A stretch of DNA of 64,000 nt from Dehalococcoidia bacterium (lineage in GTDB: Bacteria; Chloroflexota; Dehalococcoidia; Bin125), in the NCBI GenBank assembly GCA_963662615.2, contig CAXXSR010000001.1, forward strand, positions 1,056,001-1,120,000. Direction: 5' to 3'. Position numbers and translations under genes: made by a program. Under the pieces are notes generated by a model that worked only from the letters and a program-made list of their open reading frames with translations, ran no database searches and was not told where the DNA came from. The stretch's first letter is position 1. Each line of letters opens with the position of its first letter. Shown here in pieces: positions 32,879 through 39,519 of the stretch.

Positions 32879-34399
32879 GTGCGCTCGCCTGTCGCCCCCC
32901 GTTCCGGCGTCCCACGTCACAGGCGCCCGCCGCGGGCGCTCCTCTTCGGCCTCGTCGCGGTCGCCGGCTTGCTCCTCTTCGCCTGCGGCGACGACGTCCC
33001 CCGCCGCGCCGTGCACCTCTCCGAACTCGACAACGACATCGGCCCGGTGACGGCCAACTTCGTTGACCGCGCCCTCGATCACGCCGAGAACCATGACGCC
33101 GCCGCCTGGATCCTCCTCCTCGACACGCCCGGCGGCCTCGTCACCGCCACCGACGACATCGTCCAGCGCATCGCGAAGGCAACCGTGCCTGTGGCGGTCT
33201 ACGTCAGCCCCGCCGGCGCCCGCGCCGCCTCCGCCGGCACCTTCATCACCATGGCCGCGCACGTCGCCGCCATGGCGCCCAGCACACAGATCGGCGCGGC
33301 CACGCCGGTGGGCGCGGGCGGCGCGGACATTGAGGGCTCCTTGGGCCGCAAGATCCTCAACGACGCCTCCGCCGACATTCGCGCCATCGCCCAGCTGCGC
33401 GAGCGCAACCAGGAATGGGCCGAAAGCGCGGTCCGCGAAGCGGTCTCCGCCACCGCGGAGGAGGCCGTCGAGCTCAACGTCGTCGACCTCGTCGCCACCG
33501 ACGTCACGGATCTCCTCGCCCAGATCGACGGGCGCAGCATCGTCCTCGCCGGCTTCGTCGCGGGCGAGCCCGCCGGCCCCGCCCTCACGATTCGCACCCG
33601 CGGCGCGCCCATCGTTGAGACCAACATGAACTTCTTTGAGAACGTGTTGGACTTCGTGGCGGACCCCAACATCGCCTTCCTGCTCATTACCCTCGGTGGT
33701 CTCGCCTTGGTGATCGAGCTGTTCTCGCCGGGCCTCCTCGGCCCCGGCATCTTCGGTGTGATCGCGCTCCTGCTCGGTTTCTTCGCCTTGGGCAGCCTGG
33801 ACACCAACCCGGCCGGGCTCGCCCTGCTCGCCATCGCCCTCGTCCTCATCGTCGCGGAGATCTTCGTGGCCGGCTTCGGAGTGCTCGGGATCGGCGGGAT
33901 CATCGCCCTCTTCTTCGGCGGCCTCTTGCTGATCAGCGACTCCCCCAACGCCGAAAAGGTCTCGCTCTGGCTTCTCTTCGCTGTCGTAGCCGCCGTCGCC
34001 GCCACGGTCCTCGCCCTCTTCCTCCTGATCGTGAGCGACCGCCGCAAGCAGAAGGTGGCCACCAGCCTCGCCGACCGTATGGTCGGGCAGACGGGCGTCG
34101 TCCGCTCCACTCTCGACCCCGTAGGTACCGCGCTCGTCGGCTCCGAACTCTGGACCGCCCGCAGCGAGGGCGGATCCCTCCCCGCCGAGACCCCCGTCCG
34201 CGTTGTCGGCGTCGACGGTCTCCGCCTCCTCGTCGAGGCCCCCGCGGCTGCCGAGGGCAGCCAGGACTCCGAAGACACTCCGGACACCGAAGACACCGTC
34301 GCGCCACCGTCCCCGCCCGACGCGCCGCCGCTCGAGCGCCCGCCGGGGTCCAGCGCCGCTAGGGAGGGGTCGGAGAAGCCGCCGGCGGACGCAGGCTGA
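32879..34399 (+). CDS. nfeD: NfeD-family membrane-bound serine protease
   Basis: LDTPGG, AASAGTFI, IGAATPV, TM helices, C-terminal OB fold (ELWTARS). Confidence 0.9.
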   Translation: MRSPVAPRSGVPRHRRPPRALLFGLVAVAGLLLFACGDDVPRRAVHLSELDNDIGPVTANFVDRALDHAENHDAAAWILLLDTPGGLVTATDDIVQRIAKATVPVAVYVSPAGARAASAGTFITMAAHVAAMAPSTQIGAATPVGAGGADIEGSLGRKILNDASADIRAIAQLRERNQEWAESAVREAVSATAEEAVELNVVDLVATDVTDLLAQIDGRSIVLAGFVAGEPAGPALTIRTRGAPIVETNMNFFENVLDFVADPNIAFLLITLGGLALVIELFSPGLLGPGIFGVIALLLGFFALGSLDTNPAGLALLAIALVLIVAEIFVAGFGVLGIGGIIALFFGGLLLISDSPNAEKVSLWLLFAVVAAVAATVLALFLLIVSDRRKQKVATSLADRMVGQTGVVRSTLDPVGTALVGSELWTARSEGGSLPAETPVRVVGVDGLRLLVEAPAAAEGSQDSEDTPDTEDTVAPPSPPDAPPLERPPGSSAAREGSEKPPADAG

Positions 34400-35165
34400 C
34401 CTCACCGGCAAGAAAGCGTCGCCGCTCCCCCGTCTCCAGGCGCACCACCAGCGCCCCCTCCTCCGTCACGTCCTCGGCCACCCCCTCCACCACACCACCG
34501 GCCTGGTCCGCCAGGCTGACGGGCCGTCCCAGCGTCTCCAGCCGTGCCCGCCACCCCTGCAGCAGCGCCGGCGTGGTGGCACCGTCGTAGGCCCGTTCAA
34601 AGGCGTTCAGCGTCGCCGCCAGGATCGGCTCGCGCGCCAGCGGCCTGCCCCGCTCCAGCGCCAGGCTCGTGGCCGGTCCCTCAATGGCGCCGCCGAACGC
34701 GCCGGGGTCGAAGTTGACGTTGATGCCAATCCCCACCAGCGCGAAGCGCGGCCGCCCCCCCACCCACTCGCTCTCCACCAAGATGCCCACGAACTTCTTG
34801 CCCCGCAGGTGCAGGTCGTTCGGCCACTTGATCCGCGGGTAAAGGTTGACCACCTGCTCCACCGCGTTCGCGACCGCCACCGCCGTCAGTATGCTCAGCC
34901 GCTGCAATCGCGCCGCCGAAGGCCGCACCACGATGGTGAAGTAGAGGTTTTGCCCCCCCGGGGAGACCCAGGACCGGCCGCGCGTCCCCCGGCCCCGGCT
35001 CTGCTCCTCCGCGATGACGACGGTGCCCGTCGGCGCTCCGTCCTCCGCGGCGGCGCGAGCGTCGTCCATCGTCGACGTGGTGCGCAGGCGATAGATCAGC
35101 CGCCGCCCCACCCGCCGCGTGCGCAGGTCCTCGGCCACGGCCTTGCGGCTCAGTCGGACTCCCAC
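34359..35165 (-). CDS. birA: Biotin-protein ligase (no HTH)
   Basis: STMD, EEQSRGRGTRGRSW, IKWPND, KFVGILVE, GIGINVN. Confidence 0.93.
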   Translation of the reverse strand: MGVRLSRKAVAEDLRTRRVGRRLIYRLRTTSTMDDARAAAEDGAPTGTVVIAEEQSRGRGTRGRSWVSPGGQNLYFTIVVRPSAARLQRLSILTAVAVANAVEQVVNLYPRIKWPNDLHLRGKKFVGILVESEWVGGRPRFALVGIGINVNFDPGAFGGAIEGPATSLALERGRPLAREPILAATLNAFERAYDGATTPALLQGWRARLETLGRPVSLADQAGGVVEGVAEDVTEEGALVVRLETGERRRFLAGEVSLRPPAASPTPP

Positions 35166-35224
35166 GCCCCCACGGTAGGCCGCATCACTGTGCGGAGCGA
35201 AACCGTGCGCAACGCGAGCAAAGA

Positions 35225-35370
35225 GCAAGCCCCCGGCTCGCGCCGGGGGCTTGTCAGATTTCGTGCCCAGGTGATGCTCCTAGGACTCACCCACCTCCTT
35301 CGATGCGCGGTCGTCGGCTCCATCCCTGGGCAGCAAACTATGTCCCAAGTCGCATCACCTCCTTTCCTGC
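35225..35370 (-). ncRNA. Candidate structured small RNA / sORF transcript with two SD motifs
   Basis: TACACT -10 like box at 35376-35381, AAAGGAGGTGAT and GAAGGAGGTG, long-range complementarity, terminal hairpin. Confidence 0.45.
35226..35253 (-). terminator. GC-rich hairpin, probable terminator of the small RNA candidate
   Basis: CAAGCCCCCGGC-TCGC-GCCGGGGGCTTG. Confidence 0.65.
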
Positions 35371-35661
35371 TCTCCAGTGTACCAGGCCTTCCTGATCCCC
35401 ACTATGGCGGCAAAGACCTGCCCCCCAATGGCTGGGAGGGACCGCCTCCGGTAGGCGCTGGCGTCGGCCCGCCCGCTCCGATGCCGAGCGACCCGAAACC
35501 GCGGCGATTACCCGAAATTGTTCGACGGCTTGGCTGACCTGCTCAAGCCTCTCCTGATAAACCGCTTAGGGTTTGATCGATCTCGTACATGACGAGGGCC
35601 CTATGAAAAGCCGTACGAAAAACTACACGCCTTGGGATTGTCAAGGTCGCGATGCTGGGGA

Positions 35662-35970
35662 CTACATCTCCATCACTTCGGCGACTTCAACTGTGCCCAT
35701 TTCAAGGAACGGGCACCCCTTCACCATTGCAACAGCAGCATCCATGCTGTCGGCTTTCACGATAGAAAAACCCATCAAGGGATTCGACCCACCATCGTCT
35801 GAGACGCCACCGGAGCTTACGGTCTTAGCCTTTCCCAAGGGAGTACCGGGGTTGACCACGGCATCCCCCAGGCCGCCGACCCAGGATTCGAATCTCGCCT
35901 TTTGTTTGGCTCCCTCTTCAGGGCTCTCAGGCATTTTCCCACCGTGATAGGCAAGGACGTATTCAGACAT
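35662..35970 (-). CDS. YciI-like protein
   Basis: YVLAYHGG...GFSIVKADSMDAAV...CPFL...VEVAE; AGGAG SD. Confidence 0.85.
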   Translation of the reverse strand: MSEYVLAYHGGKMPESPEEGAKQKARFESWVGGLGDAVVNPGTPLGKAKTVSSGGVSDDGGSNPLMGFSIVKADSMDAAVAMVKGCPFLEMGTVEVAEVMEM

Positions 35971-36036
35971 CGATCTCCTCTTTCTCATTTGCAGTTCGTA
36001 AGACGCTCTAGTTTCCGAACCAACGATCGTGAGGTC

Positions 36037-37386
36037 TTACAGATTGCCCGTCACCTCTTTGACCCCCTCCTCCACGATGGTGAGGATCGCGTCCACCTCC
36101 TCCGCCGTCGCCACCAGCGGTGGCGCCAGCACGAAGGAGTCCCCGCGAATGCGCGTGATCAGACCCCGACGTTGGCAGGCGTTCCGCAGCCGCACGCCCA
36201 TGCGCATCTCCTCGTCGAAGGGGACGTCGTTCTCGGGATCTTGCAGTAGGTCCAGGCCGCACATGAAGCCCAGCCCCCGCACATTGCCCACGTAGCGGTT
36301 CTCGCCGAGCAGCATCAGCCCGTTCAGAAGCTGCTCGCCCCGTGCCGCAGCGTTCTCCACCAGCCCCTCCTCTTCGATGATGGCGAGGTTGCGCAGCGCC
36401 ACCGCCGCCGCAACGGCGTGACCCGAGTTCGTATAGCCGTGCATGAACTTGACGCTGGGGTCGGCGCCGGTGATCGTCTCGAACACCTCCCGCGACCACA
36501 CCGACGCCCCCAGCGGCATGTACGCGCTCGTGATCGCCTTCGACACCGACATCAGGTCCGGCAGCACCCCAAAGTGCTCCAGCGCGAACCACCTCCCCGT
36601 GCGGCCGAAGCCCGTGATCACTTCGTCCGCGATCAGGAGCACCTCGTAGCGGTCGCAGACCTCGCGTAGCTGACGGAAGTAATCCGGCGGCGGCGGGTGG
36701 ACGCCACCGCCGCCCTGCACCGGCTCCGCGATCACCGCCGCCACCGTCTCCGGCCCCTCTCGCTCGATCGTCTCCGCAATGTTGTCAACATTGTTGTTGC
36801 CGGGATCAATGCGCGCCCCGCCGCTCGGCATCGGCTCCACGCTCGCCGCCGGCACGATCTCGTGTACCCGCGGTTCAAAATTGGGGTAATACATGGACAT
36901 CCCCGTCGCCGACATGCAGGCCAGGGTCGTCCCGTGGTACCCCTCCACCCGGCTGATCACCTTGACCTTCCCCGGCCGCCCCTTCATTGCCCAGTAGAAA
37001 CGCGCCGTCTTAAAGCTGGTCTCGTTTGAATCCGCGCCCGAGGTGCCGAAAAACACCGCCTGCATGTTGTCGTAGGCCAGCTCCACCAGCTTGGCCGCCA
37101 GCTCAATGGCCGGCTCGTTGCTGGAGCCCACGTAACTGCTGTTGAAGGCCAGCCGCTCCATCTGCCGCGCGGCGGCCTCCGCCAGCTCTCGGCGCCCGTG
37201 CCCCACCGCCACGTTCCACAGCGAGGAGAGGCCGTCAATGTAGCGCTGCCCGTCGTGCCCGTAGAGGTAGATCCCTTCCCCTCGCTCGTACAGCAGCGGC
37301 TCCTGGTGATCGCTGGGATGGGAGAGCGGATGCACCCAGTGGGCGAGATCTTTCCGCACCAGCTCCCGGTACCGTGCATCGTCCAT
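36037..37386 (-). CDS. Class III aminotransferase
   Basis: YIDGLSSLW, YHGTT, IAEPVQG, ADEVITGFGRTG, VSKAIT, HGYTNSGH. Confidence 0.95.
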   Translation of the reverse strand: MDDARYRELVRKDLAHWVHPLSHPSDHQEPLLYERGEGIYLYGHDGQRYIDGLSSLWNVAVGHGRRELAEAAARQMERLAFNSSYVGSSNEPAIELAAKLVELAYDNMQAVFFGTSGADSNETSFKTARFYWAMKGRPGKVKVISRVEGYHGTTLACMSATGMSMYYPNFEPRVHEIVPAASVEPMPSGGARIDPGNNNVDNIAETIEREGPETVAAVIAEPVQGGGGVHPPPPDYFRQLREVCDRYEVLLIADEVITGFGRTGRWFALEHFGVLPDLMSVSKAITSAYMPLGASVWSREVFETITGADPSVKFMHGYTNSGHAVAAAVALRNLAIIEEEGLVENAAARGEQLLNGLMLLGENRYVGNVRGLGFMCGLDLLQDPENDVPFDEEMRMGVRLRNACQRRGLITRIRGDSFVLAPPLVATAEEVDAILTIVEEGVKEVTGNL

Positions 37387-37422
37387 GCTGAGTCCTTCCT
37401 TGCGATCCACCCTCGACGGCGA

Positions 37423-39114: not shown

Positions 39115-39519
39115 GCGGCCAGGCGACCTGTAAGCCGAGTTCTGTATCCCTCCCGCCGTGCCCGCCCGCCGTTGCCGGCGCGCGGGAGCAGGAAGGACGG
39201 TGGCCATCTCTCTACGACGACGGTTACCCGCCGCCTCCAGCGACCTACCCGAGGGCGGAGTGAGGCGCTCCCTGGCCCTCCTATTTGGTCTTGCTCCGGG
39301 CGGGGCTTGCCCAGCCGGCCGGTCACCCGACCGCTGGTGCGCTCTTACCGCACCATTTCACCCTTACCCTCCCCGAATAGGAAGGGCGGTATGTTTCTGT
39401 GGCGCTATCCGTGAGGTCGCCCTCCCTGGGAGTTACCCAGCGCCCTGCCTCAATGGAGCTCGGACTTTCCTCGACCCTTCCTCGCAGGAAGGGCCGCGAC
39501 CACCCGGTCGCCTGGCCGC
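39115..39519 (-). ncRNA. rnpB: RNase P RNA (class A)
   Basis: GAGGAAAGTCCGAGCTCC and ACAGAACTCGGCTTAC universal motifs; GCGGCCAGGCGACC terminal pairing. Confidence 0.97.

Follow-up and report, generated by a model that had tools for sequence, protein, structure and literature searches.

A conserved small element upstream of birA in Chloroflexota: a candidate structured mini-mRNA whose ribosome site may be gated by pairing

What kinds of small bacterial RNA join a strong ribosome-binding site to a short open reading frame (ORF)? Leader-peptide attenuators of the trpL/hisL type have their own promoter, a strong Shine–Dalgarno sequence (SD), an ORF of about 20 codons, a helix that ties the ORF to the stretch after its stop codon, and a terminator about 150 nt from the start. 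Dual-function small RNAs (sRNAs) such as SgrS/SgrT, RNAIII/hld and SR1/SR1P are independent, terminated transcripts in which a structured body accompanies a short ORF. The subject of this work is a unit of about 150 nt that lies on the minus strand upstream of birA, at positions 35371..35222 of a 64,000-nucleotide stretch of DNA (the window) from a Dehalococcoidia bacterium (GenBank assembly GCA_963662615.2, contig CAXXSR010000001.1, positions 1,056,001 to 1,120,000). With the attenuators this element shares a promoter, an SD, an ORF of about 20 codons that ends before the terminator, and a helix between the ORF and the post-stop region; unlike them, it has no predicted antiterminator and no shared regulatory codons, and the gene downstream often has its own promoter, is convergent or is unrelated. 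Like the dual-function sRNAs it has, to judge by its sequence, an independent promoter and terminator, a structured body and a short ORF, but its SD stands at the extreme 5′ end and is far longer, it contains an internal mimic of the 16S ribosomal RNA (16S) tail, and a second SD is found close to its stop codon.

The aapA3/IsoA3 system of Helicobacter pylori is described as having a short ORF, an SD masked by anti-SD sequences, a long-distance helix and a limited co-transcriptional period in which the SD is accessible (PMC6733600). The element differs: its peptide is not conserved and is hydrophilic, there is no evident antitoxin RNA, and it is a single chromosomal copy conserved across a phylum. 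Could it belong to a known RNA family? The original prediction had presented the locus as a candidate small RNA, and at the curated thresholds of Rfam 15 no family is found at the element or at the loci of 16 distant members, where matches with E up to 0.1 are all sub-threshold. The sole recurring weak match is to CC2171 (RF01867), with 21.2 bits in the window (E = 0.027; 35226–35374, minus strand) and 24.1 bits in a relative (L258). The element is not a CC2171 member: these scores are far under the gathering score of 75, and the phylum differs, CC2171 being a family of Caulobacter and other Alphaproteobacteria. In the consensus line the parts nevertheless appear in the same order. The CC2171 consensus has GAAAGGAGGUGA a few bases from the 5′ end and GUG about 7 nt later, and the consensus of the weak match continues with a helix arm (CAUuGuC) after the GUG and its partner GaCaAUG just before the terminator. 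On this comparison, made with the Rfam consensus alone, CC2171 may be an analogous or related ribosome-binding small RNA. It is expressed in Methylorubrum by Northern blot, with its function unstated in the accessible text (10.1101/2022.01.24.477521), and the accessible parts of the CC2171 reports give expression and one covarying pair and no function. Full-text searches of open-access papers (supplementary sRNA lists not covered) found nothing describing the element. To our knowledge, the combination of an SD for the whole 16S tail, an internal copy of that tail and a second SD near the stop is undescribed as a unit.

Anatomy and spread of the element

We read the element, tentatively and with confidence a little short of even, as a structured and autonomous mini-mRNA in which pairing between SD and anti-SD sequences gates the ribosome site. 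Its anatomy, its conservation, the covariation of its long-range helix (P1) and of its terminator, and the constraints on its ORF are observations. What are its parts? On the minus strand, an extended −10 box, TGgTACACT (35384..35376; TACACT at 35381..35376 with TGg in front), places the predicted RNA start at about 35371–35368 and precedes a predicted transcript of about 150 nt (35222..35371, the extent of the match to covariance model R1). The first SD, SD1, is the 13-nt GAAAGGAGGTGAT (35366..35354; GAAAGGAGGUGAU in the RNA). It is followed by an ORF at 35348..35280 with a TTG start, 22 codons, a TAG stop (35282..35280) and the peptide MGHSLLPRDGADDRASKEVGES. Inside the ORF lie the 5′ arm of P1, UGCCCAGGGAUG (35332..35321), placed by a forced fold and by pair covariation, and the second SD, SD2, GAAGGAGGTG (35301..35292; RNA GAAGGAGGUG), whose GAGGU ends 10 nt before the stop. 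Just past the stop comes the anti-SD mimic GCAUCACCU (35277..35269), which resembles the 16S tail and pairs with AGGUGAUGC of SD1 (35360..35352); the 3′ arm of P1, CAUCACCUGGGCA (35276..35264), overlaps it and was placed by a forced fold and a duplex test. The unit closes with an intrinsic terminator (35253..35216), a hairpin at 35253..35226 with a 12-bp stem, ten of whose pairs are G–C, and a GCGA loop, followed by the tail CUCUUUGCUC (in the DNA after the hairpin, CTCTTTGCTC). The TACACT box, SD1, 22-residue ORF, SD2 and 12-bp hairpin named by the original prediction are all present where it had placed them on this strand.

How widely is this arrangement kept? The genome of the window gives R1 a sole match (G000:C1:1091222–1091371, minus strand; 64.3 bits, E = 2.6e-12). 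Among 40 relatives, blastn recovered the 5′ part of the element in 19 of 24 same-family genomes, and an exact pattern taken from the same-family sequences occurs at 51 loci in the genomes of about 185,000 species, all of them in uncultured Dehalococcoidia/Chloroflexota assemblies. The 47 distinct variants of this clade all keep the −10 box at a fixed distance, GGAAAGGAGGUGAUGC, the TTG, a frame of 21–25 codons, GGAGGUG near the frame end, an in-frame stop and the terminator. Farther out, R1 has matches in 17 of the 151 genomes of a class sample, one per genome, including seven further families in which the start is ATG (GGAGGUGAUGCGC AUG GAC...), the frame runs for 19–24 codons and the arms of P1 are wholly different (for example, CGUAGCUA/UAGCUACG and CAGGCCUUAC/GUAAGGCCUG). 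A metagenome scan with a pattern for the ATG form returned at least 117 loci; among the matches listed, 58 have a frame of at most 35 codons and about 30 were judged clearly related. With a looser pattern, 89 of 401 genomes in a phylum sample matched, against about 17 for the reversed control. The element was confirmed by reading in 29 of these genomes, and 24 more hold an identical matched string, for 53 likely carriers, a figure that counts only read places and identical strings and leaves other pattern matches outside it; 21 read places were dropped as ordinary genes (an AMP-binding enzyme motif, rplJ) or as having no terminator. The pooled, de-duplicated set has 104 unique ORFs, 11 of which were judged unrelated, and the later counts use the remaining members, about 92; those gathered without pattern bias are the blastn and covariance-model set. 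The element is more than chance, with conserved homologues in the same family, in other Dehalococcoidia families and in at least 29 of the 401 Chloroflexota genomes.

Of 92 distinct members, 74 have a TAnnnT hexamer that ends 2–16 nt (mostly 11–12) upstream of AGGAGG; of 92 control windows, 4 do. This spacing would set the RNA 5′ end only a few bases ahead of SD1. A simple sigma-70 scan of the window gave no full −35/−10 match at this promoter. Autonomy is supported by the fixed −10 box, the covarying terminator, the single copy and neighbours that differ between lineages. How strong is SD1 as a ribosome site? The genome, of 2.66 Mb in two contigs with 68% G+C, contains a single 16S gene. The 3′ tail of this gene is GGAUCACCUCCUUUCU, and SD1 is the perfect complement of 13 consecutive letters of it, with two more pairs possible upstream. 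It is the strongest ribosome-binding site in its genome. The 13-mer occurs there in two copies, one in the element and the other as the complement of the 16S gene's own 3′ end; the original prediction had noted that the plus strand mimics that end. A second site, with AAGGAGGTGAT (C2:160285), was considered as a paralogue and rejected, as it sits within a long antisense coding region. Every blastn and covariance-model match read keeps AGGAGGTGATG, and GGAGG stands 8 nt (51 members) or 9 nt (42) ahead of the start in all 93 members counted. A rough survey of the genome covered 2224 long ORFs: an SD-like word precedes an early start in 903 of them and inner control positions in 533, and a minority of starts look leaderless (148 against 38 at control positions), which suggests that SD-led starts are common in this organism.

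Pairing and the short reading frame

Does the RNA fold, and into what? The 151-nt minus strand folds better than all of 200 shuffles (z = −4.33); for the plus strand z is −3.06, and one shuffle in 200 is as good. The minimum free energy (MFE) fold of the window RNA, at −72.7 kcal/mol, is the one in which SD1 is closed by forcing AGGUGAUGC:GCAUCACCU, and it also holds CUUGGGAC:GUCCUAGG. Forcing UGCCCAGG:CCUGGGCA instead gives −71.3 kcal/mol, so that the two conformers are 1.4 kcal/mol apart, and both of the alternative pairings use the letters CCU at 35271..35269. The switchable pairing proposed at the outset, in which a pairing that masks SD1 competes for an overlapping partner, is thus there in both forms and at nearly equal energy. 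SD1 is unpaired in folds of the first 60–95 nt of the window RNA, and the mimic emerges at about nt 95–103. SD1 should therefore be free while the first ~95–100 nt are made, which would make co-transcriptional loading of a ribosome possible.

The structure shared by relatives was drawn from A2, an alignment of 39 sequences of the commonest form, from family f1. In its consensus fold, P1 joins ORF codons ~7–12 to the sequence that precedes the terminator; the fold also contains inner helices, the terminator and, at the apex, a hairpin of SD2 (GGAGGU) with GCCUCC. In A2, 96.0% of cells are paired. The covariation score of the alignment is 0.166; shuffles give 0.084, none of 500 reaching the real value, and slid partners give no more than 0.041. 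Five pairs of P1 and six of the terminator are altered on both sides, and these two helices answer the call for covariation among homologues that the original prediction had made. The hairpin of SD2 with CCUCC shows one-sided changes only, all of them wobble-compatible, with 99.6% of cells paired. A 5′ hairpin over SD1 in f1 (A2 columns 6–43) was dropped from the model: it has no two-sided change, and 11 of the 39 sequences break two of its pairs. MAFFT and RNAalifold applied to 20 mixed sequences gave almost no structure, because the arms are misaligned. An alignment-free comparison of the early ORF with the 45 nt before the terminator gives a mean duplex z of −4.1 over the 92 distinct members, 95% of them below −2. 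The pairing of P1 is preserved by quite different sequences across these members.

What of SD2 and the mimic? An SD2-like word is present inside the ORF in 70 of 92 members, and GAGGU ends 6–10 nt before the stop in 70 of 71, at exactly 10 nt in 54. This is an initiation-like distance from the last sense codon, from which SD2 would pair with the 16S tail when the ribosome's A site is at the stop. SD2 was also considered as the SD of a downstream or overlapping cistron, and this was rejected on reading, since no conserved start codon follows 5–10 nt later. A gapless complement to SD1 of at least 8 nt is found near the ORF end in 62 of 92 members, against 21 expected from shuffles. The window lineage and two others carry AUCACCU(C) after the stop, able to pair with SD1, in place of the CCUCC beside SD2. 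In one subfamily the mimic GCAUCACCUCC is the perfect partner of GGAGGUGAUGC, which accounts for the conservation of GAUGC after the SD. Some members change GCAUCACC to GCGUCACC, and the pairing survives through U–G. One lineage (locus L101, in genome G079) has an extra hairpin, GGAGGAAUCACCGAACCUCC, inserted ~80–110 nt into the element, with a second SD/anti-SD pair whose AAUCACC is like the 16S tail.

The ORF is open for 19–25 codons in the 64 distinct sequences that were gathered without any condition on it, whereas frame +1 ranges from 2 to more than 79 codons. In the 104 unique ORFs (the 11 later excluded are included here) the starts are ATG 62, TTG 34, GTG 6 and CTG 2, and the stops TAG 53, TAA 36 and TGA 15. 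The stop column of the 21-codon group contains TAA 22, TAG 12 and TGA 4, and no sense codon. From sequence, then, the ORF is likely translated. Is it the peptide that is being kept? Over 273 pairs, the ratio of non-synonymous to synonymous differences (pN/pS) is 0.65 in the ORF frame and 1.24 and 0.79 off frame, and variable columns fall evenly on codon positions 1, 2 and 3 (13, 15 and 15). Peptides diverge strongly among lineages (MGHSQLSPRYRRRSAVEVGAS, MDSSHCCPSIWTSCTEVTVC, MDERSTKRGAVASPRLDR, MGSSKHTGVTAGEAR), and their middle residues are free within one family. The recurrent residues have a counterpart in the RNA: EV is SD2 read as codons, the mimic CAUCACCUC gives HHL in some lineages and ASP in others according to the frame in which it is read, and S-C-C is the GUUGC arm of P1, the partner of a conserved GCAAC. 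We conclude that the act of translation matters more than its product, and the peptide is probably not the effector. As the peptide is without clear selection, the element is read as a small, mRNA-like regulatory RNA.

How the element may work, and how else it may be read

How could these parts act together? That the element is transcribed and translated, that it switches and that it has an output is what we infer from its sequence. The element would be an autonomous small gene with its own promoter and terminator, giving an RNA of ~150 nt that acts as a miniature mRNA. At the 5′ end, SD1 would pair with the whole single-stranded 3′ tail of 16S, 8–9 nt ahead of an NUG start; about 20 codons later, SD2 would be placed to pair with the ribosome whose A site holds the stop. 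The internal copy of the 16S tail could pair with either SD, and P1 would tie the early ORF to the stretch just before the terminator. The RNA might then toggle between a form with SD1 open, in which P1 is made and SD2 is paired to the mimic, and a form with SD1 closed. A loaded ribosome would unfold P1, whose 5′ arm begins ~10–20 nt after the start, and would meet SD2 on terminating. The effector would be ribosome engagement itself, or its effect on the fold or lifetime of the RNA, and candidate outputs are the sensing or buffering of free ribosomes, the stability of the RNA itself and an action in trans. Among the functions first proposed for the locus, a regulated ORF or ribosome-binding RNA fits best, with SD1, start, ORF length, SD2 and mimic found family-wide and the pairing switchable; a CsrA sponge is disfavoured and a birA attenuator is unsupported.

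Several points weigh against reading the element as a gated mini-mRNA. The commonest f1 form offers SD1 only the 8-nt CGCCUCCU, itself already paired to SD2, and without a long partner for SD1 its gating is not universal. The first position of the start codon holds all four bases, so that the constraint may be on 'UGG' and not on a start codon. Several counts are made up largely of family f1 sequences, and relatives are not independent observations. Some members were collected with patterns requiring AGGAGGTGATG and NUG-G, and with ORFs limited to 12–30 codons, which makes the invariance of SD1 and the ORF statistics of that part partly a matter of construction. The adjacency to birA, kept across many families, is left unexplained. 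Finally, of 24 sequencing runs surveyed, 20 contain the stretch in whole or in part; the region is covered by the DNA runs X1 and X17, X24 gives no cover, and the sole run on record as RNA with part of it (X20, a metatranscriptome, with a 0.05 share of words) covers the interior of birA only, although these data are contigs and their lack of cover over the element proves nothing about expression. The X20 sequence is a 161-nt contig with 3 differences, at window positions 34786–34946 within birA, a hint that a close relative was transcriptionally active in that sample.

Could the parts amount to a single dedicated device? A bolder version, which we think quite unlikely to be right as a whole, would have the RNA engage ribosomes in order to report or buffer the pool of free, intact ones, as an ancient housekeeping RNA of Chloroflexota, possibly of the CC2171 kind. 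A 30S subunit would be captured through the entire 3′ tail of its 16S, some 20 codons would be read, and the ribosome would be held at the stop by SD2. The mimic would compete with real ribosomes for SD1, so that fold or lifetime would report the ribosome pool, and the constant position ahead of birA would be a hint that translation capacity and lipid synthesis are connected. If real, the element represents an undescribed family of small RNA and short ORF, found once per genome through much of a major phylum that is largely uncultured. It would offer a compact natural system for the gating of ribosome loading and termination by SD/anti-SD pairing, and a candidate ribosome sensor or sink. Annotators of Chloroflexota genomes would have two things to note: a gene, so far unannotated, that lies before birA and after murE or an aminotransferase, and a birA that is leaderless.

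Is translation needed at all? The element might be a non-translated sRNA whose SD1 binds the 16S tail of free 30S subunits or a C-rich RNA, as a 5′ stabiliser or 30S decoy, with the ORF a by-product; a 5′ SD is reportedly such a stabiliser in the STAB-SD of Bacillus cryIIIA. A complementarity of 13–15 nt is more than initiation needs and is the most conserved part, the codon positions vary without bias at a pN/pS of 0.65, the peptide 'motifs' coincide with SD2, the mimic and the GUUGC arm of P1, and the freedom at the first letter of the 'start' codon points the same way. Against it, the ORF stays at 19–25 codons and frame +1 does not keep its length, a single position takes any of the three stop codons and never a sense codon, the order ATG > TTG > GTG > CTG together with the 8–9 nt spacing is the pattern of real start sites, and a fixed distance from SD2 to the stop makes sense only for a ribosome that reads the frame. 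We consider this reading unlikely. We are more doubtful still of the converse, a functional micropeptide of ~20 residues (a partner or modulator of BirA, for instance, or a Cys/His-rich metal binder) whose expression would only be tuned by the RNA structure. In its favour, the start, the stop and the length are all kept, the ORF frame has a lower pN/pS than the other two, an N-terminal M-[DG]-x-S and Cys/His-rich stretches recur, and birA lies downstream in many families. The peptides nevertheless differ strongly between lineages and, in their middle, within one family; for a protein retained throughout a phylum, 0.65 is a weak pN/pS; the residues that are conserved coincide with pairing partners in the RNA; and many members are not adjacent to birA. 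Like CsrB and RsmZ, the element is a small terminated RNA with GGA motifs, which raises the idea of a sponge that titrates CsrA/RsmA: the window RNA has seven GGA triplets, two of them in the conserved AAGGAGG, and its genome encodes CsrA (71.5 bits). Known CsrA sponges carry far more GGA sites; here only two or three are conserved (in SD1 and SD2), and the commonest form has SD2 paired. A CsrA match is present in just 12 of the 53 carrier genomes and absent from 41 (the counts include genomes marked as unpublished: G203, a carrier by identical string, is CsrA-positive; G378 is CsrA-positive only; a pattern match in G485 is not counted as an element); among the 29 read directly the figure is 7, and CsrA-free carriers include genomes that are 95–99% complete. 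With most carriers lacking a CsrA match, a sponge can hardly be the function in general, and the idea is very improbable for the element. An mRNA like that of a type I toxin, its SD masked by anti-SD stretches and a 5′–3′ interaction, has equally little to recommend it: the SD, internal anti-SDs and long-range helix do resemble the layout described for aapA3 (PMC6733600), but the peptides vary greatly, are hydrophilic and lack any membrane-like stretch, the element is single-copy in a housekeeping context, and no conserved antisense promoter was seen by eye, no formal search having been made.

What, then, is the relation to birA? The gene in the window (34359..35165, minus strand) encodes a group-I biotin protein ligase without a DNA-binding domain (Pfam BPL_LplA_LipB and BPL_C; TIGR00121 at 152 bits, cut-off 83). 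A birA on the same strand lies downstream in all 16 representatives of f1 and f2, the window's family and a sister family. Of the metagenome loci tested, 12 of 26 have it, as do 5 of 16 loci in other families of the phylum; the adjacency is old and widespread. Together with the layout, which is that of the classical leader-peptide attenuators, this invites a reading in which the element regulates birA in cis, leader translation or folding setting read-through or the occlusion of the birA promoter. Some loci (L273, L093) even have a birA with an SD, its start 14–35 nt past the terminator and no evident promoter, and an effect in cis is conceivable in those few promoter-poor lineages. As a general account we find it very unlikely. 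The terminator is kept in the MFE fold of 90 of 92 members folded whole, of 88 of 92 when the ORF is masked and of 80 of 83 when the mask extends 12 nt beyond the stop, its loss costs a mean of ~20 kcal/mol, and the ribosome-masked folds of the 92 members predict no antiterminator pairing that competes with it. In most loci, the window included, birA looks leaderless with a promoter of its own: a TAnnnT stands before its start in 28 of 38 loci (at 6 nt in 27, for example L011, L016 and L036, and at 7 nt in one) against 5 of 1238 control positions. The box in the window, TACCGT (35177..35172, minus strand), is −10-like, lies outside the RNA and is 6 nt upstream of the likely birA start, GTG 35165; the start of the longest ORF, TTG 35228, lies inside the terminator and is probably wrong. 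A read-through RNA would carry this leaderless birA as an internal start without an SD. The spacer from terminator to birA varies widely in length, other members precede AIRS-type, TilS, MurJ, GreA or SmpB genes or convergent ones, and the collected peptides have no shared run of regulatory codons for a sensed amino acid. The attenuator for birA offered by the original prediction is thus unsupported, given the missing antiterminator, the leaderless-type promoter and the varied neighbours. Two other links to biotin found no support. A biotin riboswitch would need a conserved core, and the body between the arms of P1 varies in sequence, length and sub-hairpins, its conserved letters being SD- or anti-SD-like, while many members lie away from biotin genes; and an identification of the upstream aminotransferase as BioA is not borne out, with 342 bits to TIGR00508 (cut-off 405) and higher scores to generic aminotransferase models.

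Neighbouring sequence

On the same strand upstream, the element is preceded by murE, a class-III aminotransferase (37410..36037) and a partial YCII-like ORF (35988..35662). The last of these stands between aminotransferase and element in this genome only, and its Pfam match is to the C-terminal half of the domain; about 260 nt without an assigned feature follow it, and in relatives the aminotransferase or murE is directly upstream of the element. The region 35400–35988 looks like an insertion or a gene remnant. Downstream, members of the 'AVASP' subfamily (metagenome loci L125, L152, L181, L187) have a conserved convergent gene end just past the terminator, their opposite strands being alike there; among the ORFs tried this gene has no Pfam match. 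The G+C-rich core of the terminator stem has several exact copies of 14–16 nt clustered at ~379.2–379.5 kb and 384.6–384.9 kb of G000:C1, candidates for repeated terminators or for a repeat family. At threshold, the window has a single Rfam match, a bacterial class A RNase P RNA at 39115–39515 on the minus strand, with 294.8 bits.

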